DNA of 64,000 nt from Macrostomum lignano (lineage: Eukaryota), in contig NIVC01002930.1 of assembly GCA_002269645.1 (NCBI GenBank), positions 65,594 through 129,593 of the forward strand, read 5' to 3'. The notes beneath the pieces were generated by a model. That model saw only the letters and a list, made by a program, of their open reading frames with translations. It ran no database searches and was not told the DNA's origin. This document shows, piece after piece, positions 1,650-59,964 of the stretch (position 1 is its first letter; every line of letters begins with the position of its first letter). A program made the position numbers and the translations under genes.

Positions 1650-4600
1650 GCCAACCCAATAGCAGCAGCCTTAACATCTTTAATGATGGCAGCTGTACCT
1701 GCATCAACCCGGCTACCAGAGGGAAATCTTCCCCCGATATTACTTTCGCTATGAGTGACCTCTCCTGCAAGGTGACCTGGTCCACGGGCCGAGTATCGGG
1801 TCTGATCATCTACCCATCTAGACCACATTACTTCAGAAAGCCACTCCCTTCCAAAAAACTGGGAGGAGCTGGTACAATTTCAAGAAAGCTGACTGGGGCT
1901 CTTTTCATCGCCACACTGACAAGTTCCTGGCTAAACTCCTAGCAAGTGACTAGCTCTCCATCGACAAGGCTCATTCTAACCTCATCGCCCTGATCACCCG
2001 GGCTGCTAGAGCCTCTATCCCTTATGGAAATGGCAAACGCATCAGGCCTCCTTTCTGGAACGAGCGCTGCCAGGAGGCGGCCAACAACAGAGAAGTGGCC
2101 TGGCTGGTAGCTATGGCGAACCCCGAAGATACTGATGCTATCACAGCCCTTGCCAACGCCAAGGCCGCTGCTGCCAGTATCATTAGAGAGGAAAGGTGCC
2201 ACCAATTCTACGACTCGGTTGCCTTGCTCGGGCCAGGTGATTTGCTATGGAGACTTATCAAACAATATGATGGTTGCCTGCAATCTGCCCACCTGGCGGC
2301 TATCTTCCCCAAGCCAGCTACTGAGCAATCTGTGGCCAAAAAGGCTGTTACCAACCGCCAAAAAGCCGAGCCTTTCTGTGCTGATTACGCGACAGTCTCT
2401 AGGCTTAAAAAGAACAAGGATGTCAACAGACCAATCATCATTGAAGCCCATGTTGCGACTAACACCTGTGATTGCTCCTGCGGGGATCTTAGGACGGATA
2501 TCTGTGCTCCCTTCACCACTACCGAACTCAATGTGGCGACCCATCAGATCAAAAACGGGAAATTGCCCAGAGTCGATGGTATCAATAACAAACTGCTTAA
2601 GCAACTGAGTGATAAAGGGCGAGCTACCCTTCTTGAGCTTTTCAACTGTAGCTGGACCACTGGCGAGGTCCTTGCCACATGGCGATGTGCTGAGATTATT
2701 GCTATTCTCAAAAAAGAGAAAGATGCTAGCGCTACCAGCTCCTACAGACCCATCTCTCTGCTCAGCTGCGTTGGAAAACTGATGGAGCATATGGTCACGA
2801 ACCGGCTGTATTTCTGGCTTGAGACCTGCAGCCTGCTAAACCACAATCAGACAGGTTTCTGTAAAGGACACTCTACCATGGACCAACTGATGCGCATCAC
2901 CCAAGCTATTTTTTATGCCTTCGAGCAGAAGAAACCAGAGCGCGCCATCCTTATCCTGCTGGACTTCGCCAAAGCCTATAACCAGGTGTGGCGCCTGGCC
3001 TTATACACAAAAATGGCATGGCTTGGCATCCCCAAGCATGTTATTCACTTCATCAAAAACCTCCTCTGCGACCGTCGCGCCTGTGTGCGCTGGGGGGGCT
3101 GCAACCTCCAACTGGAAAGTCTTCTCTGATGGCCTGCCCCAGGGGTCGGTCATTGCACCTCTGCTATGGCTTGTTTACGTCCATGACATTGACGACGGCA
3201 TCAACAAGAGCATCCACCATTCACTTTTCACCAATGACACGGCACTTCTGGCAACGGGCCGGTCAATGAATGCCTGCGCTGCGAAGATCCAACCTGCGCT
3301 GGACCATGTCATTACATGGACTAACAAATGGAAGGTGACGCTGAGCCACTCTAAATGCATCTTCACCACTTTCACGCTGAACCACAGTGAATGCGGTGGA
3401 AAGGTCCTTCTGACTCTGCACATTGAGGGTCAGGAGCTTACATACAATCTGTCACCTACTTTCCTCAGTCTACACCTTGACGATCAATTGACTTTTGCTA
3501 ACCATGTCAAGGCCATGTGCCAAAAAATGGCCAATAGGTGGCGCTGCCTACAAACCCTTGCTGGCAAGGTCTATGGCACTCATTGGACCACGCTGTGCAC
3601 TGCCTACATGGCCTACATCAGGTCAGTGTTTGATTACGGAGCTGCCATCTACTTCAATCACGCCGCGCCCACTCTCAGGGACAAGCTGGAGGCTGAACAA
3701 CATAAGTGCGCACACATCATCACCTGATGCCTCGGTGTCACGAATTGCCACTCTCTGCTTGCCAAAGCAGACCTTCCGGCACTGCACCTCTGCGCCAAAC
3801 AGCTCCTCAGCAATGAATTTATCCGCATCATGAGCCTGCCCAATGATGACCCAGCGCGAGAGTTGCTGTCGATCGCGCCACCGCCACGCCTCCGCAGCAG
3901 GGCGAATGAAACCTGGAAGTGCGAGGTCGGCCCCAATAAACCTGTCGATATTCTGAGATGGGACGAAGACATTACCTTGAGCAACAAACCTTGTTTCTGC
4001 TGCATTGGACAGTGGCTGTGCGAGCTCGCTGGGTTCCACCTGGAGGATCTCATGCGCCCTGTCGAGCCCGCACTCCCGCCATGGCACTGGCTGGATAAGC
4101 AGGTGACCATCGCGGTTGACCTGGTTGCCGCCACGTGCCGGAGTGACCCTCCCGACTTCTGCCGGGAGATTGCTGAGAGGACGCTGGGCCTCCTTCATCC
4201 GGCGGACGTGCTCATCTGGACCAATGGATCCACCCGGCCAGATGGCACTGCATCTAGAGGAGGAGCTGTTATCACCTCGGACCTTTTGGGTATCCAGAAA
4301 GATGTCTATGTGCCGGCCAGTTGCTGGAACAGTAGCACCAGTGCGGAACTTGTTGCGATCGAAGCGGCCCTTGCCTACCTGGCTGAGCTTCTCCATAGTG
4401 GCGGCAGCCTGGCCATTACTGTCAGGCTATGCACAGATTCCTGTGCCAGCCTCCAAACGATCCTGTGTGGCCTGACTATTGCGGCAGACAATGTCACCTG
4501 ATGCGTCTGGACTAATATCGCTGCCCTGCCGAGTGGCTGCAAAATTCACCTACAATGGGTGCCAGGTCACGCTAACCTCCCTAGGAACAAAGCGGCTGAT

Positions 4601-5120
4601 GAGCTGGCCAAGAGAGCTACAGAGGCTCAACAACAGCCGATTTCCATCACCCCTATTGCCGCTAGGACTGCCATCAATCATGTTATCCAAGGTTGGCATA
4701 AAACGCGAGACCATATGCACCCATTCCCAAGCTCGACGCCTGGCCACGACGATCTCCTGAGATGGGGCCAGGTCACACTTTGCCAGCTGAGAATGCGCAA
4801 ATCCCCGCTCATGCGTGACACACTCCACCGATTTGGTCTCACTGCTAACGACCGATGCACTACCTGTGGAGAGTTGGACTTGGTTGAGCATCTGCTCCTA
4901 ACCTGCCCAGGCTACCACCAGGCTCGCATCTGCACCTGGGGTGGTATCAGCATTGATTGGAATACCGTGCTAGGGGGCGAGGGCAGCCTCCTCTGTGATT
5001 AACTGCACAGGGTAGGCCGCCAAGAACCGCCTATTGACGATCTAGGTGGCAGAGCAGCCCCGATTCGGTCTCCCGCAGGTGGCCGCAGGTCAGAGTGAAG
5101 AGAGAGAGAGAGAGAGAGAG
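1650..5120 (+). mobile_element. 5'-truncated, decayed non-LTR retrotransposon with APE-RT-RNase H-zinc finger ORF2 (I/Ingi-group-like); (GA)n at the 3' end
   Basis: APE remnants LNIFNDGS..SSPDITF..GSDHLPI (about 1670-1820) and WYNFKKADW. RT motifs YRPISLLSCVGKLME, LDFAKAY, GLPQGSVIAPLL and LFTND (degenerate ADD). RNase H motifs IWTNGS, AELVAI, TDS and WVPGHANLPRNKAADELAK. C-terminal CTTCG...EHLLLTC. Several stops and frameshifts. Boundaries approximate. Confidence 0.9.
2095..5002 (+). pseudogene. Disrupted LINE ORF2 (RT plus RNase H) split over ORFs 2095-3129, 2915-3727, 3830-4501 and 4559-5002
   Basis: Consecutive domain motifs fall in different frames; catalytic Asp residues read as Asn (FTND, WTNGS). 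Confidence 0.88.
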
Positions 5121-12341: not shown

Positions 12342-12464
12342 ATTATCTTTATCATGAATTTATTCATTATCTTTAACTTTTATTTATAAACATGAAAATT
12401 GAGCTATGGATTGCAAAGCTATGAAAGAAATTCTGGGAATTTTTAGGATACCCCCCATATATTG

Positions 12465-13320
12465 TGATGTGTCCCTTATTACCCGACTTTCGATAATCAA
12501 GGAACAATCACTTCTAGCTCAGCAGCTAGGCAACCCAGTAAGTCAACAGAAGGTATTCAATTACCTTGAGTCCTTTGGAGATCTCTCGGAGTAGTTCTCG
12601 ATTGTCTTCAGTTGCTCTCGTATAGTCACTTCTGACTTTCGTTTGTAGAGCGGGTCCGATTCTTCTTTCTTCTTCAAATAGTTCCGGCCGGATTCTGTTG
12701 CTCGGACCAATGGGAAGCTTCCGAATTAACAGTGGGATCCCTGCGCCAAACTGTGGTCTAAATTAAGCCTCCTTCTTCGAGCAGTGCCTCTATGCACTCT
12801 AGGTATAGCTCCGGAAACCACTGATAGTCCTCTAAGATCTATCAGGGGCAGTCCTTCTGGAGACTGCAACCAATGGAGTCTAAACAGACTCAAGAGTCTC
12901 AACAGACTCAAATAGACTCAAGTCTCAATAGACTTGAGCGAGACGTCTCTAACACAACGGCGCAAATAAGGAAGGCTTACCGCAACAACTCGACCGAGTC
13001 TCGATGGACTTGGTATATCAGGAAGTCCTCCTAAGGCTTCCTCTTCGGAGCGCTCCTCTTCCGTGGGGAGAATGGCTCCGGTACCGCTTCAGATCGCTTG
13101 TATTTATAGACAAGTTTTTGATCCAAAATAGTATCATGACAATTCACGTGTTGCGCTAAAAGGGGAAAATGGCTCATGGCGTATTATTCTGGTAACATCT
13201 TTTTCTGGTAGCGTGATTCATTCAAAGCTTAGGCGCACATGCGTGTACTTACTTACTTATAGTAGTATTATACGATTATCTTCTTTTTTCCTTTTTTAAC
13301 GGGAGGTAGAACACTCTACA
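12465..13320 (-). repeat. 3' LTR (856 bp)
   Basis: Direct repeat of 22171-23025; by eye 3 C/T substitutions and one 1-nt indel. Confidence 0.97.
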
Positions 13321-13323
13321 AAA

Positions 13324-13335
13324 TCTCCCTTTTTT
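13324..13335 (-). other. Polypurine tract
   Basis: Minus strand AAAAAAGGGAGA, 3 nt before the 3' LTR (TGTAGAG..). Confidence 0.85.
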
Positions 13336-13500
13336 ACGAAAAAACTCGTCCCGAGTTTTAACAATAAAATTCTGTGGTGATCAGTTAATATAGGAAATAA
13401 ACAATTGATTTTGTGCGCGTCTAGTGAAGCGAGGGTTTGGTCAAAACTCTAAAAACTTTTCAGTACATATTGCGGTCAAAACTCGAATATCGCGTAGACA

Positions 13501-13875
13501 TCAAGTGGCATCAGGTTTGATCCGACACCACTTTCGAAACGTGCAGTCTCGCGGCATACTATCACATAAGGGGCATCCTATAACGCCCCTACTAGCGGTT
13601 TGCTTCAAACAGTGCATGCAAATAAAATGTTGGTGGTTACAATATTGAAACGTGCGCCAAGAATAACAATAGGCACATTGTCGCAAACTATCTCTACAGA
13701 GGGGACAATTCTGCCATGGCTGAATATAATGTGAATCGCTTAAACATTGTCCGCAAACTTTATGTTCGTTGATGCAAATAGTCGGTGGCTTGACAGCCAA
13801 GTCATCAGTTAAACATATCGGGCAGTCATATAGCTGCTGAGGCTGGGGCGCCTGTTTCGACAGTGCGTTGCTCAT
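13501..13875 (-). CDS. Element-encoded 124-aa tandem RING-finger protein (putative E3 ubiquitin ligase)
   Basis: RING1 CPIC-x12-C-x3-H-x2-C-x2-C-x12-CPLCR and RING2 CAYC-x8-C-x3-H-x2-C-x2-C-x11-CPLC. First ATG at 13875 (the track start at 13887 is TTG). Lies between the pol stop and the PPT. Confidence 0.85.
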   Translation of the reverse strand: MSNALSKQAPQPQQLYDCPICLTDDLAVKPPTICINEHKVCGQCLSDSHYIQPWQNCPLCRDSLRQCAYCYSWRTFQYCNHQHFICMHCLKQTASRGVIGCPLCDSMPRDCTFRKWCRIKPDAT

Positions 13876-13995
13876 AATTGTTGTCAATTTGTCGCTGTCT
13901 TTGTGTCGCTCGGATTAGTCGCCTTTTACGACAAGCTTGCGAAGCTGTAGTGCTATTCTTTATCCCGGTCACTACACGGGGTTGCTCTCGAAACT

Positions 13996-16900
13996 CTAGC
14001 GTGGTCGTAGGTTGTAGCCATGTGGCTGGCTCACATCTGTCGTTTGAGTCTCCTCGTGCTTCGTCGCGATGTGGCGGTTCGTTGAACGCGTGCGATCCGC
14101 GTTGTCTAATGTCGGTAGAAACGTCGTGGTGTCAGTGTTGATCTTCTTTAGTCGATGAATGTGTACGTAGAACTGGTGCTGATGTGGATCTTGTACATTA
14201 GCCAGGCGTGCCGTTGTCGGTGACGTTAGTTGGACCACTCGATAGGGTCCTTTATACTTCTGTGCATGTTTATGCGTCTGCTGCGGCGGGTAGTGTAGGT
14301 AAACGATGTCGCCGGCCGTCAGGGTTGTCGATCTCGCGTCGTTGCCGGTGGTCAGAGCCACCTGGTTGTCAATGTTGTGCTTGGCGATCTTCCATGCGAG
14401 GTGTAGCTGCGTGACAAATTTCTGAATGGAAGTCGGTACTTCCACGTACTGCGATGGTAGCAATTGCTGTGCGAGCAGATTCGGCGGTTGGAAGTCTCGT
14501 CCAAACATTAGGAAGAATGGCGTATTGTCCGTTGATCGATGAATAGCGCTGTTGTAGGCCATTGTTACAGATTGCAGGTAGATGATCCAGTCTTCCGGCT
14601 GTTGGTGCGCGAAGTGTGTAATCATCTTGTGCAGGTTGCGGTGAAACCTTTCAACCATGTTTGCCTTCGGATTGTAGGTCGATGTGTAGATCTGCGTAAT
14701 GTTGAGAATCCTTACGACTTGCTGAAACAGCTGCGATGTAAACTGCGATCCGTTGTCCGATGTGAGGTTCTTCGGCGTGCCGTACTTGCAAATGATTTCG
14801 TTGAAGAAACTCATTGCCACTGTCTGAGCTGTGATGTCCGGTATCGGTATGGCGATAGCAAACTTCGAGAAGATGTCCAAGGCGGTTAGGATGTAGGTGT
14901 AGGCGATGCCCTGGAGACAGCTCGGTGGCAGTGGTCCGGTGATGTCGATGCTTAGACAGTCCATTGTAGTCGACTTCGGAATGGACTGTAGCTGCGGTTT
15001 CTGTCGTCGTCCTGTCTTTGATGCAGCACATGAATGGCAGTTGTTGCAATACTGCTTGATGTCGCCGTACATAGTTGGCCAAAAGTAGTATTGTTCCACT
15101 CTCGCGATGGTCTTTGCGGCCGACAGGTGTCCAGCGAGTGGGTTGTCGTGCAGCTCGTTGAGAATTGCTTGCCGAAACGAATATGGTACGTAGATCTTAG
15201 GTTTATTGTCGCTCATCCAGTAGAGCCGTGACTTATTGATTGTTAGGTGTTGTCGTTGCTTGCGTAGGAATTTTCGTTCCATGGGGCTAAGTTTGATGTT
15301 CTTGTCGTCGTCTTTAACCGCTTGGTAGAAGTTGTCGCGCTCGGTTTCATCCACCAACTCCTTGATGTTAGGGATTGGATGAATGGCGTTGACTTCATAG
15401 GCTCTTGACAGGGCGTCCGCGGCTTTGTTGGTAATTCCTGGTTTGTAGACGAGTTTGTAGTTGTAATCCTGTATCTTGAGTGTCATCCTGATGAGTCGGT
15501 TGTTGGTCTGTCCTTTTGTAGTTACGACGTAGGTCAATGGTGCATGATCCGTGCGTACTATCGTCTGTATTGGAGAACCATAGATGTAGTAATGAAACTG
15601 TCGCAGGGCGAACAAGACTCCTAGTAGCTCTCGTTCCGTAGCTGACCACTTTGTCTCATTTGGTTTGAGTGCTCGACTGACGTAAGCAATAGGTCGTTCC
15701 TTCTTGTCCTCGGTTTCCTGTAGTTGGACTGCTCTGAGTCCCGTTCCTGAGGCGTCTGTCTCGATGATGAAGGGCTTGTCGAAGTCCGGATGCTGTAGCA
15801 GTGCGTCTGATGTCAGCTGTCGTTTGATTTCGTCGAAACTTTCCTGTTGTCTCTGTGTCCAGTTGTCTTGCTTCCATTTGTCGAACTTGAGCAGGTCGTA
15901 CAGTGGCTTTGCTGTCTTTGCGAAGTTAGGTAAGAACTTCCTGAAGTATTGCGCAAGTCCAAGGAATGATTGGACCTTCGTTATACTGGTTGGCGTAGGA
16001 AACTTCTTCACCTTTTCCACGTTGTCTGGGTCCGGTGAGATTCCTTTGGCTGTCACCTGATGTCCCAGGTAACGCACGTTGTCTCGGAAGAATTTGCATT
16101 TAGTTGGTTGTAGCTTCAGACCTTGACGTTGTATAAGCGCGAGGGCCTTCTCCGTCGCTTCATAGAGTCGTTCGAAGTCTTCTCCGTGGGCCAAGATGTC
16201 GTCAACATAGTGCAACAGGTTCGTGCATCCTGCAAGCATGTATGCTGTTAGTCGGCTCATCGTTGCTGGGCTGTTGCTGAGTCCCATCGGCGATCGATTG
16301 TACTCGTATACTTGTCCATTGTAGGTTTTGAAAGCCGTGTACTGTCGTGACTCTTTCTCGATTTCAATTTGCCAAAATCCATGACGTAGGTCGAACACCG
16401 TGAACAATTTTGCCGTGTTGAGCTTTGCTAGTAGTTCGGAGATCTTCGGTAGGCTTTGCTGATCCGTCGGTATGTACTTGTTCAACAGTCTGAAGTCGCA
16501 TACGAGTCGTCTTTCGTTTGTCTCCTTCTTCTGTACCAGTAGGCACGGTGAGGAGTAAGCCGAAATAGCTTTGCTGATGATGCCGTGCTTTAGCATTTTA
16601 TCGATGATTTCGTCAAAGTGTTGTTGCAGATGCTTGGCGATCGGGTACGGCTTGCACTGAATTGGTTCCGTGTGCGGCAGAAGTTTGATTTCCTGTTTGA
16701 TGTCCTTGGCTCGTCCGATGTCGTAATCATGATGGCAGAAGGCTTCGTTGTACTTCCACAACAGCTGTCGAACTTTCCTCTTTTGCTGTTCCGTAATCGG
16801 GCTGTCATCCAAATTGATCTTCTTTTGAAATTCTTCCTCTGTTAGTCGTGGAGTCGCTTGTTCAATCAGCATAACCGATGCTTGGGTGTTGAGATGACCG

Positions 16901-17745
16901 ATGCACATTCCTTGTCGTAGATGAACCGTTTCTGTGTTCGGGTTGAAGATTTGTACTGGCAGTTGCTTATCCTTTGCAACCAGCACTAGTGCCGTAGGCA
17001 TCATGATTTGATGTTTTGCCGTGACTCTCCTGTGTGGATCAAATATCATTGCTTCATCTGCCGCGCTGGTCGTTTTCGCTCTGACCCAGCATGCGCTTTC
17101 AGGCTGGATAATGACATCTTGCTGCAGAGTTACTTTCGGTAGTACTCGAATCTGGTTGATCAGCGGTTGCTCCACCGTGTCGATCCTAAACGTTTGCTTG
17201 TTGAAGTCGAAGGTCAATGGTAGTTGAAGCTGCTTGAACGTGTCGATTCCAACGATGACGTCTTGGTTTGGTAGTCTGTCGATGATGTACGTCGGGACCG
17301 TCAGCTGTTTATTAGCAATTTTCAAGTCGATATCTGCTTTTCCTAGGATGTTGAGTGAATGTCCTCCTGCTCCTGCAACTGCGATTGCTGCTGGTCGTAC
17401 CGCGAGTCGTAGCTTGTTGCATAATTGTTGCGAGATGACTGTGATCGAGCTGCCTGAATCCAGTAGTGCTCGACATGGCAAGTTGTTGACAATGACCTGA
17501 GCCATTGCTTTGCCAATCTCGGCGTGTAGCGTACAGACGTAGTTTTCCGGCCATTTTGGCTCGTGCTGTTCTGCTTGATAGTTGGGTGGTTGTATCCTTG
17601 GTGCCGTTGGTGTTGTCGGAATCGATGGATATAGCCGCGTTGCTAGTGTCGGTTGCCCTTGAACCTCACAATGTGCAGTTTCTGTTAGTTCTAAACTGTT
17701 GTCGCTTCCGTTGTCGTTCTTTGCATTATGGCATTCACTGTCTTC
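13996..17745 (-). CDS. pol: Gypsy Pol: protease, dUTPase-like spacer, RT, RNase H, integrase; frame is open from 17745, first ATG at 17505
   Basis: LLDSGS (PR), YVDD (RT), ETDAS/RELLG/TDHAPL/ADALSR (RH), H-x6-H..C-x2-C, SIDITGP/SDNGSQF/VERFHR (DDE), GPY motif, and terminal YNLRPR. Uninterrupted. Confidence 0.97.
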   Translation of the reverse strand, partial: EDSECHNAKNDNGSDNSLELTETAHCEVQGQPTLATRLYPSIPTTPTAPRIQPPNYQAEQHEPKWPENYVCTLHAEIGKAMAQVIVNNLPCRALLDSGSSITVISQQLCNKLRLAVRPAAIAVAGAGGHSLNILGKADIDLKIANKQLTVPTYIIDRLPNQDVIVGIDTFKQLQLPLTFDFNKQTFRIDTVEQPLINQIRVLPKVTLQQDVIIQPESACWVRAKTTSAADEAMIFDPHRRVTAKHQIMMPTALVLVAKDKQLPVQIFNPNTETVHLRQGMCIGHLNTQASVMLIEQATPRLTEEEFQKKINLDDSPITEQQKRKVRQLLWKYNEAFCHHDYDIGRAKDIKQEIKLLPHTEPIQCKPYPIAKHLQQHFDEIIDKMLKHGIISKAISAYSSPCLLVQKKETNERRLVCDFRLLNKYIPTDQQSLPKISELLAKLNTAKLFTVFDLRHGFWQIEIEKESRQYTAFKTYNGQVYEYNRSPMGLSNSPATMSRLTAYMLAGCTNLLHYVDDILAHGEDFERLYEATEKALALIQRQGLKLQPTKCKFFRDNVRYLGHQVTAKGISPDPDNVEKVKKFPTPTSITKVQSFLGLAQYFRKFLPNFAKTAKPLYDLLKFDKWKQDNWTQRQQESFDEIKRQLTSDALLQHPDFDKPFIIETDASGTGLRAVQLQETEDKKERPIAYVSRALKPNETKWSATERELLGVLFALRQFHYYIYGSPIQTIVRTDHAPLTYVVTTKGQTNNRLIRMTLKIQDYNYKLVYKPGITNKAADALSRAYEVNAIHPIPNIKELVDETERDNFYQAVKDDDKNIKLSPMERKFLRKQRQHLTINKSRLYWMSDNKPKIYVPYSFRQAILNELHDNPLAGHLSAAKTIARVEQYYFWPTMYGDIKQYCNNCHSCAASKTGRRQKPQLQSIPKSTTMDCLSIDITGPLPPSCLQGIAYTYILTALDIFSKFAIAIPIPDITAQTVAMSFFNEIICKYGTPKNLTSDNGSQFTSQLFQQVVRILNITQIYTSTYNPKANMVERFHRNLHKMITHFAHQQPEDWIIYLQSVTMAYNSAIHRSTDNTPFFLMFGRDFQPPNLLAQQLLPSQYVEVPTSIQKFVTQLHLAWKIAKHNIDNQVALTTGNDARSTTLTAGDIVYLHYPPQQTHKHAQKYKGPYRVVQLTSPTTARLANVQDPHQHQFYVHIHRLKKINTDTTTFLPTLDNADRTRSTNRHIATKHEETQTTDVSQPHGYNLRPR

Positions 17746-20048
17746 TTAGCTCTTGGACAAGTTTGACTGAAGCACCGTACGATCGATGAAATGATGAAGA
17801 TTGCCGTGACAATCCACACAATGCAAGCACCGTAGAAGATGAATCCTTGATAGAGACTGCCTCTTCCATTGAGCAGCTCCCAGAAGCTATTTGTCCAAAA
17901 TGATTTGATGGCGCTGTCCATTGAAACAAGGACGGGAAATCTTCCTGTCCCGGTTCCTTTGTCCTTTCTTGTGAACAGCTGGTGAATCATCTTGCGTTGG
18001 GTGATGAACGCTTGCAAGAAGTCGTTGATCGTCCATCCTGGTGTTATCTCGTCAAGTTGGATATCGGCGAATGGCGTATACTTCGTTCTGTTGAATCGGA
18101 TTTTCAAATCCTCCATGTCGTAGTTTTCGTCGACGATTACTTCCGGTTCTGTGACGTTTGCTGTCGTTCCAGTTGTTTTGATGACGTGTAGTGCATTGTC
18201 CAGTTGATAGTAGTTTGCTGCCGTGGTGCAAGGTCTCGGTATTGCGGTGCCAACGATGATGTTGTGTACCGTGTCCAAGAATCCCTGAATTCGTTTTCCT
18301 TCGTAGAACGCTTCAATCCTTGGCTTGTCGTAGCAGGTTGTTGACGTGTTCGACGGCAAGATGTTAAAGTGCTGTATCGGCGTGCACTTGTATATTAACA
18401 GATGCTCGTATATTGGAACTGCCAAAACGTTCGTCATTCCGGTGATTTTACGAAAAGTCATCGTAGGGTTGACATAGTAGTTTTGTCTGGCATAATTTAA
18501 GTTGATTGCGTGCATTTTGCAAGTTAGCTGGACCAGTGTTCGATGCAAGTGGTTTAACTGGTTGTGTAGATTGTGATCCAAAGCCGTTATCTTTGCTGAC
18601 AGTAGTCGGTTTGACACCAGTTTGGGACGTTCGATGTCACGTCGTCGTCTGTTCTGTTGTTCCTGCTGTTGATACGTTCCGTTGATGATCGCCAGAAAGG
18701 TTTGTTTGTCGTCATCTTTTACGTAGACTGGTATCTCTTGTTCCGAGATGAATAGTGTCTTGTCTGTATCCTTGCATTTCAGTTTTTGCTCGACTGGTTT
18801 CTTTTGAAACGTCAGTGCCAAGTCTCCTGACTTTGCCAAAAACGTATTTGACAGTAGTCCTCCTTCAACTGTGTGATACTTTTGAAGCTTGCAGTCAATT
18901 TCCGGCTCAACTTCCCACGCGAAGAAGTATTGTCGTGACTTAGATGGTTCTTCATATCGTGAGTCGCCTCTGCGTATAATTTGCCATCGATAGTCTTGAT
19001 GATATGTTGGACTCAACGGTAAGCTGTATAGTTCCTCATTCCGCAGTATCGGCGTTGGACACCATCCTTTGCTGTATCGGCAGTCGCTTAATTGCAGTTG
19101 TAGCGACTCCATTTTTTCAAAAGGATTGTGATAGAATGGAATATTCCTGATTAGGTAACTGTTTCGTGTCATGTAGTTAGTCCATGCTTCCGAAAAGTGT
19201 ACATATCGTCCGTTTGCTGAGTTCTTCGTTCGGTAAAGTTGTGCCTCCCCCACTTTCTCATCCGGTTCTAGCTGACCATCCTTTGAGAACAGTGTTTGGT
19301 TCCATTGTAGACATTCAGCGTGCGACACATGTAGTTCGTGTTGCCAAAATCGAATTCTGTTCCACTGTCCTCGCCAAACTTTTTCCACTAGGTGCTTGTC
19401 TCTAAAGCACACTATTCCGAGTTGTCGATGCTTCTTGATGTTAGCTTTGTAGAGATCAATTGTGATCTTCTTTGGCTTCGTCTGGTTTGTCTTGAAGTAG
19501 CTGCATTTGATGTCGGTTGGTATCTTGTAGATCATTGGTTGGATATGCGCATCCGTTGGACATATCATTGGTTTCTCCATTGCCGTTGCTTTGGCGACTA
19601 CTGCTATCAGTAGTATCACGATGATCCAGAGCAGCCAGTTTTTCCACTTCTTGGACCTTGCCGTTGTCTTTGCTGGCATTGGCTGCGATTGCCATTCGTT
19701 ATCCTCCATGTCCGCATCGTATTCTTTCGGTTGTTCCATTGGCTGATTCAGGCGGAAGGCTTCTGATTTGCTTTGCTCTTTGGTTATTTCAGTATCTTCG
19801 TCTGTAGCTTCTTCCGATGTTTCCGTTGTTTCACTCCATTGCGTTTGGTATCTTTTCTCTGCCTTGTAGTCGACCGTTTGAATATAGGCTTCACCATTTC
19901 GTTTGTATCGGATCTCGTAGCATTCGTCGCTGTCGGAACTCGGCTTTTCTTTCATTTGTTCTTTTTCCATTTCTTCATCTTTCCATTGTATTTCGTAGCC
20001 TTGATCGCTGTCGGAACTTAGATTTTCCGCTCTCAGTTCTTCCTGCAT
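17691..20048 (-). CDS. env: Envelope glycoprotein, herpes gB-like class III fusogen, preceded by a ~137-aa acidic leader
   Basis: Internal signal WLLWIIVILLIAVVAKATA (AxA cleavage motif), 12 ectodomain Cys, 6 N-x-S/T sequons, furin site RRRR (18639-50), a gB domain III/IV-like stretch, and C-terminal TM FIFYGACIVWIVTAIFIISSIV. Confidence 0.85.
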   Translation of the reverse strand: MQEELRAENLSSDSDQGYEIQWKDEEMEKEQMKEKPSSDSDECYEIRYKRNGEAYIQTVDYKAEKRYQTQWSETTETSEEATDEDTEITKEQSKSEAFRLNQPMEQPKEYDADMEDNEWQSQPMPAKTTARSKKWKNWLLWIIVILLIAVVAKATAMEKPMICPTDAHIQPMIYKIPTDIKCSYFKTNQTKPKKITIDLYKANIKKHRQLGIVCFRDKHLVEKVWRGQWNRIRFWQHELHVSHAECLQWNQTLFSKDGQLEPDEKVGEAQLYRTKNSANGRYVHFSEAWTNYMTRNSYLIRNIPFYHNPFEKMESLQLQLSDCRYSKGWCPTPILRNEELYSLPLSPTYHQDYRWQIIRRGDSRYEEPSKSRQYFFAWEVEPEIDCKLQKYHTVEGGLLSNTFLAKSGDLALTFQKKPVEQKLKCKDTDKTLFISEQEIPVYVKDDDKQTFLAIINGTYQQQEQQNRRRRDIERPKLVSNRLLSAKITALDHNLHNQLNHLHRTLVQLTCKMHAINLNYARQNYYVNPTMTFRKITGMTNVLAVPIYEHLLIYKCTPIQHFNILPSNTSTTCYDKPRIEAFYEGKRIQGFLDTVHNIIVGTAIPRPCTTAANYYQLDNALHVIKTTGTTANVTEPEVIVDENYDMEDLKIRFNRTKYTPFADIQLDEITPGWTINDFLQAFITQRKMIHQLFTRKDKGTGTGRFPVLVSMDSAIKSFWTNSFWELLNGRGSLYQGFIFYGACIVWIVTAIFIISSIVRCFSQTCPRAKKTVNAIMQRTTTEATTV

Positions 20049-20208
20049 TCCTTCTTCGGCTCGGTATCCGTTCGTGCATCATGCACCTCGCAGTCGTGAT
20101 CGTTGCCGTAACTTATACATTCTTCTTCTTCCTTCATTTCTTTGTCTTTCGTGCTTGTTTTGTTGTCATCCACTGTTGTCGATTCATAGTTGTTTTGTCT
20201 GCCAGTCT

Positions 20209-21464
20209 TCATCTTTTCTTCGTTGCCGGTGTCGCTCTCCGCCTCCTCCCTTTTTTGTGATTTACTTTCTTCCTGTTTTCTCTGCTGTCTCCGGTGGTCT
20301 CTTTTAATTCGATCATTTCGGTTTCATTCGCCTCTTCTGTGTTGTCAGTGTTGTCCTCGTGCGTCGTCTTCTTTTCGATCAAGCTGATGTCAAGTTCCGG
20401 GACTGTGAAGTCCATTTCCAAGTCGTCAATTGTGAACACTTGCTGTTCCTGCTGCTCATTTTCCGGTGTGTACGTGATGGCATTCGCGTATCGTGGCATT
20501 GCTTGCGTTGGCTGTCTTTGTGCGTACCTGGCATTGCGTGGCCTGTAGCCATTATTTCTGAAGCGGCCGTCATTTCCGAGCGGCCATCATTTCCGAAGCG
20601 GCCATCCTTTCCGAAGCGTCTCATGTCTTGTTGGCGATTTTGATATTGCTGCCATGGTTTCTGCGGCTTTGATTGTTGAATATCTGTCGCGGCTTGTCGT
20701 ATCTTGTTGACCAATGGGACAATTAATCTGATAATGTCCTTCTTGTCCGCAGTAGTAACATCTGGCTGAGGCTTGTTCATTTCGTCTTTTTTGTTCGGCG
20801 ATAGCAGCTGTCTGGTGCTGCATTAATTGTTTAATTGCTGCGTCAGTTTCTGCACTTCATTGTTGCCTGTCGTCATTAATGGGGCACTGGCTTCCCATTG
20901 CATTCCGCACCGCAAAAGGTCTTCTTCGGTTTCGATATTTTCACGCAAAAGTCTATCCCGAAGTGACGGCTGTGCGTTGTTTATTACGTGCAGGATGAGG
21001 TTTTGTTCGCGATCCATCAATCGTTGTCTTTCTCTGGCGGCCAATTCTGCCGCTCCCAGTGGCGGTTGGTCCGCAGCTTGCAGCGGTGGCTGATGCAGTG
21101 CCTTAATTATCTGGCGGATATCGTCCACAAAGGCGAGGAAGGATTCTGTTGCTTGCATCCTTCTGTTATGTAACTTGTGCAGCAGCACTGATCTGTTTGT
21201 GCCGCAACGGTTGAAATGCGCGCGCAGTTGAATGATTAGTGCTGGATAATTTTGCTGTGTTGCCGCATCCAGCTTGCCGTAAATTTCTCGCGCAGTACCT
21301 TGGAGAAGAGGTGGCAGCAGCTGTGCTTTCTCTGGATTTTGTAGGTTGTATTCCCTACATACCAGGTCAAAGTGGTCGACAAATGTGTTAAAATCTTTCT
21401 CCATCGAGAAGGTACCGACCGTTTCTTTGATGTCTCTGTGTACCGTTGGATTGCGCCGCGCCAT
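20209..21464 (-). CDS. gag: Gag (capsid plus CCHC nucleocapsid), broken by 1-nt indels in this sequence
   Basis: Capsid-like FSMEKDFNTFVDHFDLVC..KAQLLPPLLQGTAREIY..NYPALIIQLRAHF..QATESFLAFVDDIR (20823-21464); zinc knuckle CYYCGQEGHYQINC in the next frame; RFG(K/N)DG repeats. Confidence 0.85.
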
Positions 21465-22150
21465 GTTGTTGATAGGATAGAACGGTAGTTCAAGATCTGG
21501 ATCGATTTGTAACGGATCGTCCAGTGTGGTGTTTGCCTCGGAATAAACCTCGACTGTAACGAATTGTCTTGTGGTGTCGATTTGTTATTCGCTGGCCTCG
21601 GATGCGGTGTGGCTTGCTGCCACTGGTTGTCCTCAAATGAACTTGTTCTGTTCGCTTGCTGATTTCGCACTTATGCGGCGTCCCGCAAAGTGTATCTTCA
21701 AGTTGAAGTGGGCTTTGTCTTCTTGTTTTGCAAAGTCTTTTTCTCTTCTTTGACTCTCTCTTTTGTCAATTAACTCCGCTCTCCACGAAGTTTCAATTAA
21801 TTTCGGTTTTGTTTTTGTGCCGGCAAAATGTTTCAGTTATTTTTTGTTTGTTTTGCGTCGACGATTCTTTTATTTTCGGTTTGTTTTCAGTGTACCGATG
21901 AATTTAATTTCGGTTTTATTTTAACTCACACTTGCTCGAGCTCGTTAAAACAAAATTTAACACGCGTGCTCAAACTGTACTCAAATTTGACAGGTGCTCA
22001 AACCTGTACACCAAAATTTACTCGAGTTTCAAAACGTAACGGACTTAAAAAGTGTTAACTCTAACACGTGCGCGCAAAATTAATGAAGTCGCTCTGTCGT
22101 CACTTTACAATAGCTTGATCAGGGCTATTGCTCAAAGTTTGAGTAGTGCC

Positions 22151-22168
22151 GAGAGGGCGAGATCACCA
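22151..22168 (-). other. Primer-binding site
   Basis: TGGTGATCTCGCCCTCTC, 2 nt inside the 5' LTR; TGG complements a tRNA CCA end; the first 11 nt resemble a Trp-type PBS (TGGTGACCCCG). Primer identity not established. Confidence 0.75.
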
Positions 22169-22170
22169 AT

Positions 22171-23025
22171 TGATGTGTTCCTTATTACCCGACTTTCGAT
22201 AATCAAGGAACAATCACTTCTAGCTCAGCAGCTAGGCAACCCAGTAAGTCAACAGAAGGTATTCAATTACCTTGAGTCCTTTGGAGATCTCTCGGAGTAG
22301 TTCTCGATTGTCTTCAGTTGCTCTCGTATAGTCACTTCTGACTTTCGTTTGTAGAGCGGGTCCGATTCTTCTTTCTTCTTCAAATAGTTCCGGCCGGATT
22401 CTGTCGCTCGGACCAATGGGAAGCTTCCGAATTAACAGTGGGATCCCTGCGCCAAACTGCGGTCTAAATTAAGCCTCCTTCTTCGAGCAGTGCCTCTATG
22501 CACTCTAGGTATAGCTCCGGAAACCACTGATAGTCCTCTAAGATCTATCAGGGGCAGTCCTTCTGGAGACTGCAACCAATGGAGTCTAAACAGACTCAAG
22601 AGTCTCAACAGACTCAAATAGACTCAAGTCTCAATAGACTTGAGCGAGACGTCTCTAACACAACGGCGCAAATAAGGAAGGCTTACCGCAACAACTCGAC
22701 CGAGTCTCGATGACTTGGTATATCAGGAAGTCCTCCTAAGGCTTCCTCTTCGGAGCGCTCCTCTTCCGTGGGGAGAATGGCTCCGGTACCGCTTCAGATC
22801 GCTTGTATTTATAGACAAGTTTTTGATCCAAAATAGTATCATGACAATTCACGTGTTGCGCTAAAAGGGGAAAATGGCTCATGGCGTATTATTCTGGTAA
22901 CATCTTTTTCTGGTAGCGTGATTCATTCAAAGCTTAGGCGCACATGCGTGTACTTACTTACTTATAGTAGTATTATACGATTATCTTCTTTTTTCCTTTT
23001 TTAACGGGAGGTAGAACACTCTACA
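22171..23025 (-). repeat. 5' LTR (855 bp)
   Basis: Direct repeat of 12465-13320, adjacent to the PBS. Confidence 0.97.
22806..22813 (-). promoter_or_regulatory. Candidate TATA box of the LTR promoter
   Basis: TATAAATA on the minus strand in U3 of both LTRs (also 13101-13108). Confidence 0.55.
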
Positions 23026-24627
23026 ATTGACCTATTGTTCAATAATAGTGTCTCATATATTATATTTTATAAGAATGACTAGGGCTATATTCATATCAAC
23101 TTTAGCCTACTAATCCTAACCATTAGATGCACATGGAATTGAAAATCTCTTGCTTGAAACATTGACTCTAGTGGACTCTAGGTTCCCTTTACAAAAGCTT
23201 TAAAACTGGAAATATTCATTCATTTCTCTTCTGCTCTACTCCCTATTTATGAAATCCAAGGCTGTATTGGTCTAGAGTGGCCAATGTTATTAGATATTGG
23301 AGCTAGTTAGCTTGTATTAGAAATATGCTCTTAATTTCATATTTATGATATAAACCCTTATTAAAATATTAGAAGCTAACTATAAGATTATATATTTGAA
23401 CCTCAATTCAAAAGCATACCAAAGTAAAGAAAGGTGTTAATGAATAAGAAAAGTTAAAATTATGAAATTTTCTGTAGCACTTCTGAGCTGGTTATCATAG
23501 AAATTGTGTTAATGATACAATAATATTTTTGCATCTTAAATTTTATTCATATTTCATTTGGAGCATCAGTGCTTTTACAATTATTTAGGATTTCAGTGAT
23601 TTCTAGGCTTCTAGTAGCTGTCAAAGTTAAGTAATCTGTAAACCTTGAGTCTGCAGACTTCTGCAACATCTTTGGGTCAGAAAAAAAGTGCGCAAAATCA
23701 CCTAAAAGATGCCTTGGGTTCAGGAAACACTGCCTCTCTGTCTGACAAATAATGGCTTTAATAGCTTCTTAAAAGGTATTTCCAGTTGCACATCTGGGAC
23801 ACTGATTGCTGGTCCCCTGGCCTCCAGATGTCAGGTGTGCAGCGCCACTTCTACTGGAGTATCAAACACCAAATAACCCTTTTCAAACTAAGTGGAGAGT
23901 GTAAAGTCCCAGGATCAAGCCCTAGGGCATTGACGGCTTCATCTCCATGCCAGAAGATGGAGAGCATATTTTCGCTAATTGTTGGTAACGCTAGCCCAAA
24001 CCCGCCAGGCGTTAAAGTTTAAATGGCGATCGTAAAAAGCAAATGGGCGGGAGGCTGTCGAGGAAGAGGGTAGCAGAGGGGGGGGGGACAAAATTGAAGG
24101 GAAAATTTTGTATTTCGGCGTTTTACTGCTTCGCTAGGAGGGAGGGGGGTGGTGTCTCTATCCCATCCGGCTTCGGCGCGATGAAAGCTTTCCACACTTC
24201 CCCAGCTGCCTTATATATCTGTGTATTTCGCTTTGCGCCGCCTCTGAACTGATAGATGGCCAGCCGGGCTTGACTGAAAAAGGCCAGTGGTTGGCGGTGG
24301 CTTTAGCGCTACCATCTGCGCATTTTAGTAAAAAACACCAGGCTGCATCGGAGAGCAGGCGGTGGGGGGCTTTTTCGTCATCAAATGGGCCCAGCTGCAC
24401 GTCCTGGCTGACTGGTATGGGAGGCTTCGGTAGCAGTTTTAACGCCTTCTGTGACCGCTTACTTTTAAAACGTTGCACCATCCTACTGCAGCCTCAAGGC
24501 GTAAGCTAGGCGCAGTGTTAAGGAATCGGATCGACCATACTCCTACTCTAAAATTTGACTTCGCACCAAAAATTTTGGCTTGGCCTCATTTAACCCCGTT
24601 TTATTTTCTTCTGACTGCATTGCCAGG

Positions 24628-28859: not shown

Positions 28860-29210
28860 ATAATCCGCTTCCCCTTGTCTATTAGAGGATAATCCGCTGC
28901 TCCCTTGTCTATTAGAGGATAATCCGCTGCCCCCTGTCTATTAGAGGATAATCCGCTGCCCCTTGTCTATTAGAGGATAATCCGCTGCCCCCTGTCTATT
29001 AGAGGATAATCCGCTGCCCCTTGTCTATTAGAGGATAATCCGCTGCTCCCTTGTCTATTAGAGGATAATCCGCTGCCCCCTGTCTATTAGAGGATAATCC
29101 GCTGCCCCTTGTCTATTAGAGGATAATCCGCTGCCCCCTGTCTATTAGAAAGGATAATCCGCTTCCCCTTATCTATTAGAGGATAATCCCATACCCTCCT
29201 ATTAGAGGAT
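28860..29210. repeat. 29-30-bp minisatellite (GAGGATAATCCGCTGCCCCTTGTCTATTA)
   Basis: About 11 tandem copies just upstream of the receptor exon. Confidence 0.93.
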
Positions 29211-29255
29211 AAATCTAGAGATTTAAGCTCCGTGCCGACCCCCGTTGCCTTGCAG

Positions 29256-31079
29256 TCCGCTTCCCCAGGGCCAGAAATGTCAGGCGGCGGCAGCAGCAGA
29301 CTGCGCGACCGCAACGCCACGGTGATCCTGTGCGCCTGCCAGCCGCGAGATGCCAGGCACTGCCCGGCAGGCCAGTGCGCCACGACCTCCAGCTGTTACG
29401 CCAAGCTGCACCCTACAGCTGGCAGCAGCGAGCTGGGCTGCTTCAGCAACCGAACCGAGGGCCATCACGAGCTGGACAGAATGCAGTGCCGATCCAAAGC
29501 CCGCCGACTCCAGGCCGGCGAAGGCGCTCAAAACGTGTTCTGCTGCGGCAATGCGGACTTCTGCAATAGAAATCTCACTAGCGGCTTGGACATTGGCGAG
29601 ATTGGCCAAGCCGGCAGGACCGCCAGGCTGCCATCGGCTGCATCAACCAGGCAGGCATCTGGCCGGAGCGCTTCGGCTGCATCGCCGGGCGCCGCCGCCT
29701 TCCTGACGCCGGAGCACGCAGCCCTGCTAGCCGTGGTGGCAGCGATGGCCGTAGCCCTGGCAGTCAGTTTAGCGCTGCTATTCCTGCTGTTCCTCAGGCG
29801 TCGTCAACGAAGAAAAGGCGGCGGCGGCGGCGGCAGAGGCAACGTCAACATCGGCATCCTCGGCGGCCAGGCTGACTGCGGCGGCGCTCTGGTGGTGTCG
29901 CCCTCGTCCAGCTACCAGCAGCAGTCGTACGGGCCGCCAATTGCGGTGGCAGCAGCCGCCGATCCCAGACTGCCGGCCTCGCTATCCAGCCAGTGCGTGA
30001 CCGACACCGCGCTGACCAGCTCCGCCCTGACTGCCAGTTTCGACCTGTCATCTGGCAGCGGTCGGGGAGTGCCGTTCCTATTCGATCGCAGCGTCGCCCA
30101 GCAGGTCAAGCTGATCCGGCAGGTCGGCCAAGGCCGCTACGGCTCCGTGTGGGCCGGCCAGTACATGGGCGGCCGTCTGGCCGTGAAGATCTTCTGCTCC
30201 AGAGATGAGGCCAGCTTCCGTCGGGAATGCCAGATGTACACCAGCTTCCCGCTTGGCCACGAGAGTATACTGACATTCCGGGCTAGCGACATTACCAGCC
30301 GGGAGGGCTGCACCCAGTTCTGGCTGATCTCCGAGTACCACCCGCTTGGCTCGCTGCACGACTTCCTTCAACGGGAGCCGCCGCTGCCAGCCCGCCTGGG
30401 CCTTCAGCTGGCCCTGGGCGCCCTGTCCGGCCTCTGCTATCTGCACACCGAGGTTCGCGGCCTGCACGGCAAGCCGGCCATCGCACACAGGGACGTGAAG
30501 TCCAGGAACATCCTAGTGAAGGAGAACCTGACCTGCTGCATAGCCGATCTCGGCCTGGCCGTGGTTGCTAGGGAGAAAGCGCCGCCCGAGATGCCGCCCA
30601 AGTCCGCTCGGGTTGGCACTAAGCGCTACATGCCGCCGGAACTGCTGGCTGACAGCTTCAACTGGCACGAGTTTGAGGCGTATAAATCTGCTGACGTGTA
30701 CAGCATGGGCCTGGTGCTGTGGGAGATCGGCATCCGCATGGTCACTGAGGCCGGCTCGGCGCGGCCCTACGGCCTGCCCTATCACGAATTTGTTGGCATC
30801 GATCCGAGCTTTGACGAAATGAAAGAAATTGTCTGCCAGCGTCAACTGCGACCGGGCCTGCCGGACAGCTGGGCGGACAGCGCCACAATGCAAGCTTATC
30901 AGGCCCTGCTGGCTGAGCTGTGGCATGAGCTGCCGGCTGCCAGGCTGCCAGCCCTGCGAGCTGTCATGGATTTGACTCGGCTGGCTGAGCGACTGCCGCC
31001 GAACTCTGCGGAACTGTTGCAGAAGCAGCAGATGCTGATGGACACGGAGCCACTGTTAGCCGCGCGGAATGGCGTTTAG
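29256..31079 (+). CDS. BMP/TGF-beta type I receptor Ser/Thr kinase, ALK1/2 (saxophone) class; single large exon, 5' end probably incomplete
   Basis: Cys-rich ectodomain ending in CCGNADFCN, TM helix, GS box SSGSGRGVPFL, GQGRYG, AVKIF, L45 loop ASDITSREGCTQFWL (ALK1/2-type SDxTSR), HRDVKSRN, DLG, GTKRYMPPE. Acceptor at 29255/56, ATG at 29277. Confidence 0.92.
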   Translation, partial: SASPGPEMSGGGSSRLRDRNATVILCACQPRDARHCPAGQCATTSSCYAKLHPTAGSSELGCFSNRTEGHHELDRMQCRSKARRLQAGEGAQNVFCCGNADFCNRNLTSGLDIGEIGQAGRTARLPSAASTRQASGRSASAASPGAAAFLTPEHAALLAVVAAMAVALAVSLALLFLLFLRRRQRRKGGGGGGRGNVNIGILGGQADCGGALVVSPSSSYQQQSYGPPIAVAAAADPRLPASLSSQCVTDTALTSSALTASFDLSSGSGRGVPFLFDRSVAQQVKLIRQVGQGRYGSVWAGQYMGGRLAVKIFCSRDEASFRRECQMYTSFPLGHESILTFRASDITSREGCTQFWLISEYHPLGSLHDFLQREPPLPARLGLQLALGALSGLCYLHTEVRGLHGKPAIAHRDVKSRNILVKENLTCCIADLGLAVVAREKAPPEMPPKSARVGTKRYMPPELLADSFNWHEFEAYKSADVYSMGLVLWEIGIRMVTEAGSARPYGLPYHEFVGIDPSFDEMKEIVCQRQLRPGLPDSWADSATMQAYQALLAELWHELPAARLPALRAVMDLTRLAERLPPNSAELLQKQQMLMDTEPLLAARNGV

Positions 31080-41544: not shown

Positions 41545-47982
<6,438 letters not shown>

Positions 47983-47994
47983 CTGCAATGCAGC

Positions 47995-48557
47995 AGACAG
48001 GGCTAAGTATGAGTAGCTCAGGGGCAATGTGTCTGCAGAGGGCTGAGTATGAGTAGCTCAGGGGCAATGTGTCTGCAGAGGGCTGAGTATGAGTAGCTCA
48101 GTGCAATGTGTCTGCAGAGGGCTGAGTATGAGTAGCTCAGGGGCAATGTGTCTGCAGAGGGCTGAGTATGAGTAGCTCAGGAGCAATGTGTCTGCAGAGG
48201 GCTGAGTATGAGTAGCTCAGGAGCAATGTGTCTGCAGAGGGCTGAGTATGAGTAGCTCAGGAGCAATGTGTCTGCAGAGGGCTGAGTATGAGTAGCTCAG
48301 TGGCAATGTGTCTGCAGAGGGCTGAGTATGAGTAGCTCAGTGGCAATGTGTCTGCAGAGGGCTGAGTATGAGTAGCTCAGGGGCAATGTGTCTGCAGAGG
48401 GCTGAGTATGAGTAGCTCAGTGCAATGTGTCTGCAGAGGGCTGAGTATGAGTAGCTCAGGGGCAATGTGTCTGCAGAGGGCTGAGTATGAGTAGCTCAGG
48501 AGCAATGTGTCTGCAGAGGGCTGAGTATGAGTAGCTCAGGGGCAATGTGTCTGCAGA
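47995..48557. repeat. 40-bp minisatellite immediately upstream of the first TONSL coding exon
   Basis: GGGCTGAGTATGAGTAGCTCAGGGGCAATGTGTCTGCAGA, about 14 copies. Confidence 0.93.
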
Positions 48558-58783: not shown

Positions 58784-59164
58784 TCACGCGAAGCACTTGT
58801 CCGCATTGCGCAACAGAGCCTCGCGGTGTTTGTCCTTCAAGTGCAGCAGGAACTCCGGCGCCAAGCCCTGGTACTGGCAGTCCGGCGCCGGGCATTTGAT
58901 CGGCCGGCGCTCGCAAGCGACTTCGTGTTCGCGAATTTCGCCGCGCGGGCCTCGTCGATCGCAGTGCGGACATTTGAAGGGCAGACTGTCGATCATCCGA
59001 CGGGCCAAGGCGCTGGCCTCGGCTCGCACAGGCTCGTGGCGGCACTGGGCGCACCTGTTCACCCGGGCGACGCAGGCGCGGCAGTGCACCTGGTGACAGC
59101 AGCTGGTCTCCATAGCCTGATCGGCTATCTCAAGGCAGATCGGGCATCTTAGCCAAGCTTCCAT
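58784..59164 (-). CDS. 126-aa RING plus two zinc fingers (SIAH/Sina- or TRAF-type N-terminal module)
   Basis: C3HC4 RING CPICLE..SCCHQVHCRAC..CAQCR, then C-x2-C-x11-H-x3-C and C-x4-C-x11-H-x4-H. Confidence 0.82.
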   Translation of the reverse strand: MEAWLRCPICLEIADQAMETSCCHQVHCRACVARVNRCAQCRHEPVRAEASALARRMIDSLPFKCPHCDRRGPRGEIREHEVACERRPIKCPAPDCQYQGLAPEFLLHLKDKHREALLRNADKCFA

Positions 59165-59964
59165 CGCTTAGTAAAATAATAAGACTGCCTGGGTTCGTAT
59201 TGTGAATTGAAACGAGAAACTGCTGGAAGGGTGTATCTGGGGGGGGGGCTTTTCTAGCAGTCAAATCGCTTGCGGCGTACGCGCTGCCTCCGGGGAAGGA
59301 GGGAGCGCAGGGGTGAGACGGATTGGAATGGACATTCTATGCCGGGGTCTGAGGGTTGGTACGAGATTACACATTATAGCTGCTTGTCCTGCTAGAGGAG
59401 AGGGGGACGAATGTACGCAAGCCCACGCTAGTAGTTTGCGAGTACATCTGTACACTTTGCTCAGAGAGAGGGTAGTTTGTTCAGTACAGTTTTGTAGAGA
59501 TAAACAGCCCTAACGCCGGTAACTCAACATTTCTCAAAAAAATGCTAGCTATAATACTGTCAACATATTTAAAAGATTTTGATTACTTTAAAAACAGATC
59601 TCTCTTGCACCTTAACCATATATACGGACTGGTAGAACATATCCAATTCATTCGGCCCTACCATCCCCTCTCCTCCTCTCCTCTCTGCCCTTCATGCATT
59701 GACCTGCCAGGAAAATGACAGGAATTTCAATTTTTCTCCCAAATTACCTTTCCAAATTTTCCAGGTCCATTAGAATTGCTTGCAGACGAACCATCGAGAT
59801 TTGCCCCGCGATGCATTGATTTAGCCTTGTGGCATTTTGCCCCAATGGGGAACGACATCGTATATGCATGCATTAATAGCTTACCGATGCACATGTACAC
59901 AAGGACCACTGTAGTAGGACTCAGGACCACAGTGGTCCTTGCATGTACATCGGTTGGGGGGGGG

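Follow-up and report, generated by a model that had tools for sequence, protein, structure and literature searches.

A 64-kb stretch of the Macrostomum lignano genome (contig NIVC01002930.1, positions 65,594 to 129,593; hereafter the window, in which all positions are counted) carries an endogenous retroelement on its minus strand, from 23025 to 12465. Between two long terminal repeats (LTRs), Pfam domains place gag, a membrane glycoprotein (Env), protease, reverse transcriptase, RNase H and integrase (PR-RT-RH-IN) and a RING gene in the order given by the original prediction, and a 66-nt non-coding RNA element lies between pol and the RING gene (Table 1). The two LTRs differ by 3 substitutions and 1 indel over 856 columns. 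These four differences, the TG..CA LTR ends, a 4-bp target-site duplication, a primer-binding site (PBS) and a polypurine tract (PPT), together with a pol of PR-RT-RH-IN order whose RNase H and integrase are of gypsy type (Pfam) and whose named relatives are Ty3/gypsy proteins (28-42% identity), bear out its description as a young member of Ty3/Gypsy (Metaviridae). No tRNA genes were found in the 64-kb window.

Table 1. Features of the element, in window coordinates
Feature	Position	Strand	Remarks
Target-site duplication, upstream copy	23026..23029	-	4 bp
5' LTR	22171..23025	-	855 nt, TG..CA ends
Primer-binding site	22157..22168	-	12/12 nt as in the Mlig_errantivirus_2 entry and as in the sister family L039
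gag	20587..21464	-	capsid-like part from ATG 21464; CCHC knuckle ~20763-20716 (zf-CCHC E 7.8e-06); frame broken
Acidic low-complexity linker, Gag to Env	19635..20586	-	continuous with both frames where copies are unbroken; interrupted here
Internal signal segment	19581..19634	-	first of two hydrophobic segments in the polyprotein
Env ectodomain, class III/herpes gB-like fold (predicted)	17847..19580	-	PF24664 E 1.7e-05 (below cut-off) and structure model; furin-type RRRR 18650-18639
Env membrane anchor	17790..17846	-	second hydrophobic segment
Cytosolic tail/spacer, Env to protease	17500..17789	-	window frame shifts near 17705
pol: protease, RT, RNase H, integrase	13996..17499	-	DSG 17466-17452; YVDD 16209-16198; stop 13998-13996
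66-nt non-coding RNA element	13915..13980	-	H-type pseudoknot (predicted) and short hairpins; pol stop 15 nt upstream, RING ATG 39 nt downstream
124-aa double-RING gene	13501..13875	-	RING1 13824-13693, RING2 13677-13564; short form of a 222-aa gene
Polypurine tract	13324..13335	-	
3' LTR	12465..13320	-	856 nt
Target-site duplication, downstream copy	12461..12464	-	flank comparison

Gag, env and pol had been read as separate genes, with gag as one open reading frame (ORF; 21464-20209). Compared with an unbroken natural copy, however, the polyprotein coding region of the window copy falls into five pieces; the family has one polyprotein frame, and the separation of the three genes in the window reflects breaks in that copy. 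The 785-aa glycoprotein that had been proposed is likewise correct in its position between gag and pol, but it is not a free-standing gene. It opens with ~140 residues that belong to the acidic end of the linker on the Gag side (27% D+E), a signal segment follows, and after that comes an Env of 629 residues.

Scoring 18 of 199 candidates in the genome yielded at least 17 near-full copies, at 94-100% identity. The order gag-env-pol is the same in 17 of 17 and in two further families, with env in frame with its neighbors, so that env can be regarded as a fixed part of the family, as the original prediction required. One uninterrupted frame of 2,538 codons runs through four of the 17 copies, which represent three independent insertions because two of them share flanks. 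The env/pol junction is read through in 12; the break seen in the window occurs in four (L001, L002, L003 and L005), another break lies nearby in one, and env and pol form separate frames only in the window copy and three others. The sister family (L039) has one 2,480-aa frame, an LTR of its own (923 nt) and the same primer site, and is 63% identical to the window family in Env and 80% identical in RT-RH. A third family (P0005; G000:C270, L062, L063) encodes a single Gag-Env-Pol frame of 2,852-2,866 aa, its RT being 40% identical, and a UniRef protein labelled Macrostomum lignano is 98-99% identical to env and pol. A chimeric assembly or a nested insertion of env, either of which had been named in advance as speaking against the prediction, can effectively be dismissed, because the order recurs across copies and families, env is in frame and contigs from two independent runs span the linker-Env and Env-Pol joins.

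The break shared by four copies, one of which (L005) has both frames otherwise open, might also be taken to mean that a programmed frameshift links Pol to Gag-Env, each in a frame of its own. Reading through the junction is nevertheless the state of 12 of the 17 copies, of the sister family and of the third family, and in the main contigs of two runs this region shows one gap relative to the window. Some copies share flanks, representing one insertion on duplicated contigs, and such duplicates show different breaks, so that assembly indels may account for many of the breaks; in four of four runs, the main contigs also carry indels relative to the window at four places in gag. We consider programmed frameshifting highly improbable for the family. 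All bins (30 of 30) are covered by contigs of four runs (three presumably RNA, the fourth of unknown type); level, strand and ends are not readable from contigs. No GT..AG ends were found among the joints listed from these contigs (2 joints and 151 loose ends stand apart from that set). A continuous frame of this sort is known in kind: the nematode retroviruses of Sacco et al. 2022 (J Gen Virol) reportedly have a continuous gag-env-pro-pol frame and extra 3' ORFs, which are said to encode a small hypothetical protein or an Upf1-like helicase. Measured against that layout, the continuous frame is present here at the family level and not in the window copy, and the host phylum differs.

LTRs of the main subfamily are 862-864 nt long, and 0-4 substitutions separate the two LTRs in 11 of 11 readable pairs from other copies (five further rows, one of them an LTR compared with itself, were not counted). 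Target duplications measure 4 bp in nine other copies and 5 bp in one. Small LTR divergence and target duplications together point to recent, repeated insertion, and the lineage exceeds the 17 near-full copies, since a search for the motif of its RNA element counts 105 places. Two of the copies (L002, L003; G000:C2447:182226-202549) form a tandem pair with a common middle LTR and unmatched outer flanks, either a recombinant or a mis-assembly. On each of the contigs G000:C2121, C1130 and C87, numerous diverged copies of this lineage lie no more than tens of kb apart in total; these contigs could be insertion hot spots or traps resembling silencing clusters.

Within the polyprotein, the glycoprotein gave a weak Pfam match to a Monjiviricetes fusion protein. 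A structure model of Env built from 24 sequences (predicted local distance difference test score, pLDDT, 71.5; predicted template modeling score, pTM, 0.42) matched glycoprotein B (gB) structures of herpes simplex virus (HSV), with a best E of 1.2e-21, TM scores of 0.33-0.43 and ~10% identity. The modeled fold is that of a class III fusogen, and it is from this fold only that we infer the label of an infectious-type retroelement used in the original prediction. An HSV/gB-type env between gag and pol, its ectodomain set between a signal and a membrane anchor in a multi-copy family, agrees with the gB-type GAG-ENV-POL errantiviruses in the sense of PMC13524379. Two polyproteins of the lineage were scanned in full, and in each the hydrophobic segments number exactly two; they flank Env on either side and have the furin-type site between them. 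Such a polyprotein would cross the endoplasmic reticulum membrane twice, leaving Gag and Pol cytosolic and Env luminal, and would be cleaved by signal peptidase, furin and the element's own protease. Gag, Env and Pol would then meet at one budding membrane, because Gag would be held there by the signal segment and Pol would be carried on the Env tail until the protease releases it.

Single proteins with env before RT recur among the relatives of Env, in six further cases of which one is from a nematode. In an RT-RH tree (FastTree; 128 rows without curated reference elements, 4 near-duplicate RT-bearing rows left out; weak backbone), the three families of this host form one group with a support of 100, the third family being sister to the window lineage, and the six other env-before-RT proteins form a separate group with a support of 99. 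The tree thus calls for two groups, but it is also compatible with a single origin of the host families and the other env-before-RT proteins.

An accessory gene is present after pol, as had been proposed. It was described as a small RING gene, and a RING is indeed present, but the gene has two RING motifs and corresponds to the 5' part of the 222-aa gene of longer copies. The window form is without the helical C-terminal domain, and the second gene of the cassette is also absent; it matches longer copies over the initial ~510 nt beyond the pol stop and is ~1,060 nt shorter. In five copies that were read, the first gene encodes 222 aa and the second ~210 aa, the second being broken in two of these copies; L039 has two RING genes and L041 three. 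The cassette is one to three or more paralogous double-RING genes following pol. Seven aligned RING proteins are 23-40% identical across families and paralogues, and in all seven the 16 zinc ligands of the two RINGs and the C-P-x-C-R end of RING1 are invariant. A basic residue, such as arginine, after the last RING cysteine is a mark of active RING ligases; RING1 has this arginine in 7 of 7 proteins and RING2 is without it. RING1 thereby shows the C3HC4 ligands and basic residue of RING-HC E3 ligases, with Pfam RING scores below the cut-off. A model of the protein (pLDDT 84.5) has the layout RING-RING-helical domain. The ratio of nonsynonymous to synonymous substitution rates (dN/dS) was 0.19 and 0.16 for the two first-gene pairs with finite dS; for one pair of second genes it was 0.38, and all other pairs were saturated. 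Judged from these sequences, the RING genes are under purifying selection and are kept across families whose synonymous sites are saturated.

A few RING matches elsewhere depart from this arrangement. Six and at least four consecutive RING-related matches lie on one strand at G000:C4009:39917-47958 and C272:407798-415283, respectively, possibly much longer cassettes or rearranged copies. L045 (G000:C356) and C1588 each have a RING gene fragment with neither RNA motif nor pol end ahead of it. A host exon at 58784-59167 of the window (minus strand) encodes a RING and a Sina-type zinc finger in a layout unlike the double RING of the element.

If the RING genes were decaying passengers captured from the host, short forms such as that of the window copy should be common, and they are. 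Purifying selection and zinc ligands intact across families with saturated synonymous sites tell against decay, however, and 98 of the 104 first-gene matches in the genome sit behind the RNA motif of the element. The genome search, which scored 150 of 206 candidates and gave 145 matches, returned no host parent gene among those scored; a passenger origin is in our view improbable. A better alternative arises because a single frame brings a stoichiometry problem, which single-ORF gypsy elements face in general: RING proteins could tune the element's own products, degrading excess Pol or Env made 1:1 with Gag. The linkage of the cassette to single-frame families fits such a role. The third single-frame family, on the other hand, has no cassette in the copy read, and the tandem paralogues are 23-27% identical to the first gene, which several foreign targets fit better than one self target. 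Self-tuning seems to us unlikely, if less so than passenger status. We favor accessory, E3-ligase-like proteins that would act in trans, with host silencing or immunity as the most likely target, and would give this an even chance; trans-acting counter-defense is the best fit because the RING set is dispensable, duplicating and diverging.

The 66-nt RNA element is near-identical between the window and L039 in spite of saturated synonymous sites (proportion of synonymous differences, pS, 0.76-0.91), and three sequence types of it were found. Its predicted pseudoknot consists of a 4-pair stem whose loop is base-paired, over an A-rich linker, with a strand further downstream; 96.6% of the cells of the pseudoknot helix are paired, compared with 28-39% in slid controls. 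In two pairs of this helix both members are altered (A-U/G-C in 6 of 12 rows, A-U/U-A in 3 of 12), and the last hairpin could equally well form in a second register. The 3' motif of the RNA occurs at 105 places in the genome against 4 for a control, and at 98 of the 100 places listed a first RING gene follows within 200 nt; this search, made with the 3' motif, may miss more distant variants. A covariance search of Rfam 15 (ribozymes, exonuclease-resistant RNAs and internal ribosome entry sites) found no family, only a chance match (E 3.2) elsewhere in 13300-14200, and the RNA had 0 matches in metagenome contigs. Compared by eye, the layouts of hepatitis delta virus-like, pistol and twister ribozymes gave no fit. 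Read-through from pol into the RING gene is excluded, because the frames differ and stops intervene.

The position of the RNA suggests a device for expressing the RING cassette. The pseudoknot may let the downstream genes be expressed from the genomic transcript, either by protecting a subgenomic RNA or by re-initiation, and we put this slightly short of even. A rival reading holds that the RNA is a cis signal for packaging, dimerization or strand transfer that is not tied to RING expression. The RNA is kept beside truncated RING genes and, as read by eye, in deletion derivatives without env and pol (L050, L061), as a cis signal would be. Packaging signals usually lie near the 5' end, however, and this RNA has a fixed place between the pol stop and the first RING ATG; we rate a cis role as somewhat improbable. 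L050 and L061 have internal deletions that removed env and/or pol and spared the RNA element and a RING gene. A joint at 18862/13981 in runs X1 and X4 is likewise a deletion derivative, its short side being only 30 nt.

The gag-env-pol order, offered in the original prediction as a possible novelty, is already in print: Chary & Hayashi (eLife 2026, PMC13524379) describe the arrangement GAG-ENV-POL for gB-type elements of Nematoda, Bryozoa and Platyhelminthes, which do not form a monophyletic group, and cite the nematode elements of Sacco et al. 2022 (doi 10.1099/jgv.0.001739) as having env before pol. Supplementary file 1 of that study lists Platyhelminthes_Rhabditophora_Mlig_errantivirus_2, with an HSV-type env, 16 copies, LTRs of 863-864 nt and a spacing of 9,727 nt. 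The window family resembles this entry in its PBS (12 of 12 nt), its gB-type env and the species label shared with the 98-99% identical UniRef protein, and it compares closely in LTR length (862-864 nt), spacing (9,705 nt) and copy number (17 near-full). Very probably the two are the same family, matched here by PBS, LTR length, spacing, env type and copy number. The available main text of PMC13524379, with figures and the authors' repository outside this scope, has no mention of RING, single ORF, frameshift, fused frames, polyprotein or accessory genes, and its available supplements have none of RING or zinc finger.

The element is unlike insect Errantivirus (gypsy/ZAM), in which a baculovirus F-type env lies 3' of pol, in that its env is gB-like and lies 5' of pol. 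It also differs on both counts from BEL/Pao elements with a gB-like env, which have a Pao-type protease and RT and an env 3' of pol. Bdelloid gypsy-like LTR retrotransposons carry a lineage-specific accessory ORF3 after pol (Rodriguez et al. 2017, PMC5408684); according to the parts of that paper at hand, these encode env, GDSL esterase, DEDDy exonuclease or membrane proteins, as opposed to the double RING found here, and RING or ubiquitin is not mentioned there. Viral RING E3 ligases (herpes ICP0, RING proteins of large DNA viruses) share the C3HC4-type RING and give weak fold matches of the same kind, and the nearest Atlas clusters are RING proteins of Nucleocytoviricota (0.91, below the Atlas threshold), a lead only. 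Unlike those ligases, the element's protein has no alignable homologue, and its double RING with helical domain is without a clear match (best Z 6.5). The sections of PMC12801592, on LTR elements of Macrostomum lignano, that were available contain no mention of RING, and a RING cassette or pseudoknot as accessory features of LTR elements was not found in the literature searched, which is thin on subscription journals. The gene order is not new, but the RING cassette and RNA element are apparently unreported.

Taken together, we think it probable that the window holds a recently inserted, frame-broken copy of a multi-copy macrostomid Ty3/gypsy family of gB-type GAG-ENV-POL arrangement, with a single-frame polyprotein followed by an RNA structure and double-RING genes. 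Several observations count against parts of this account. For the RING genes, no outside relative was alignable among 1,832 candidates, no match to a RING reached E<=0.001 in fold searches, scores from Pfam and from fold comparison are weak, and shortened forms are common among the copies, including the window. The one copy of the third single-frame family that was read has neither RING gene nor RNA motif behind pol, so the cassette is not needed for the genome plan. For the RNA, the covariation amounts to two events only, there being three sequence types, and the compensatory-pair count of 2 was matched by 238 of 500 shuffles. Furthermore, 12 of 17 pairs are invariant and there is hardly any variation in the 3' hairpins, one pair of the pseudoknot does not form in 6 of 12 rows, the nested fold of the region is unremarkable (z 0.10), and the identity between the two families could partly stem from recombination. 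Lastly, the env/pol break common to four copies leaves room for a frameshifting sub-lineage. A more far-reaching proposal is that of a "complex" env-bearing lineage with a membrane-threaded polyprotein, its own expandable ubiquitin-ligase array disarming host defense, and a pseudoknot RNA of a new class, such as one that blocks exonucleases and would give a coding subgenomic RNA; this we offer tentatively, as an unlikely extension.

The remainder of the window holds other repeats and host genes. The plus strand has a non-LTR retrotransposon, broken but with an RT and an RNase H-like end, at 1700-5050 and a single-frame kinase resembling TGF-beta/BMP type I receptors at 29187-31079. Exons for TPR-like, ankyrin and LRR repeats occupy 41545-48057 (minus strand), separated by minisatellite introns, in an order that we take to be Tonsoku-like. 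Dense minisatellite arrays with units of 4-45 nt occur between and within host genes from 24700 to 62000.

The gag-env-pol order adds nothing beyond what is in print, but the RING array and the RNA element could. If the proposed role is true, the E3-ligase array would offer a direct handle on transposon counter-silencing in a tractable regeneration model, and the short RNA element with its compensatory variants may reveal how expression is achieved for a gene lying behind a 7.5-kb frame. With a single frame, in turn, the topology and stoichiometry of gB-type Gag-Env-Pol become testable.

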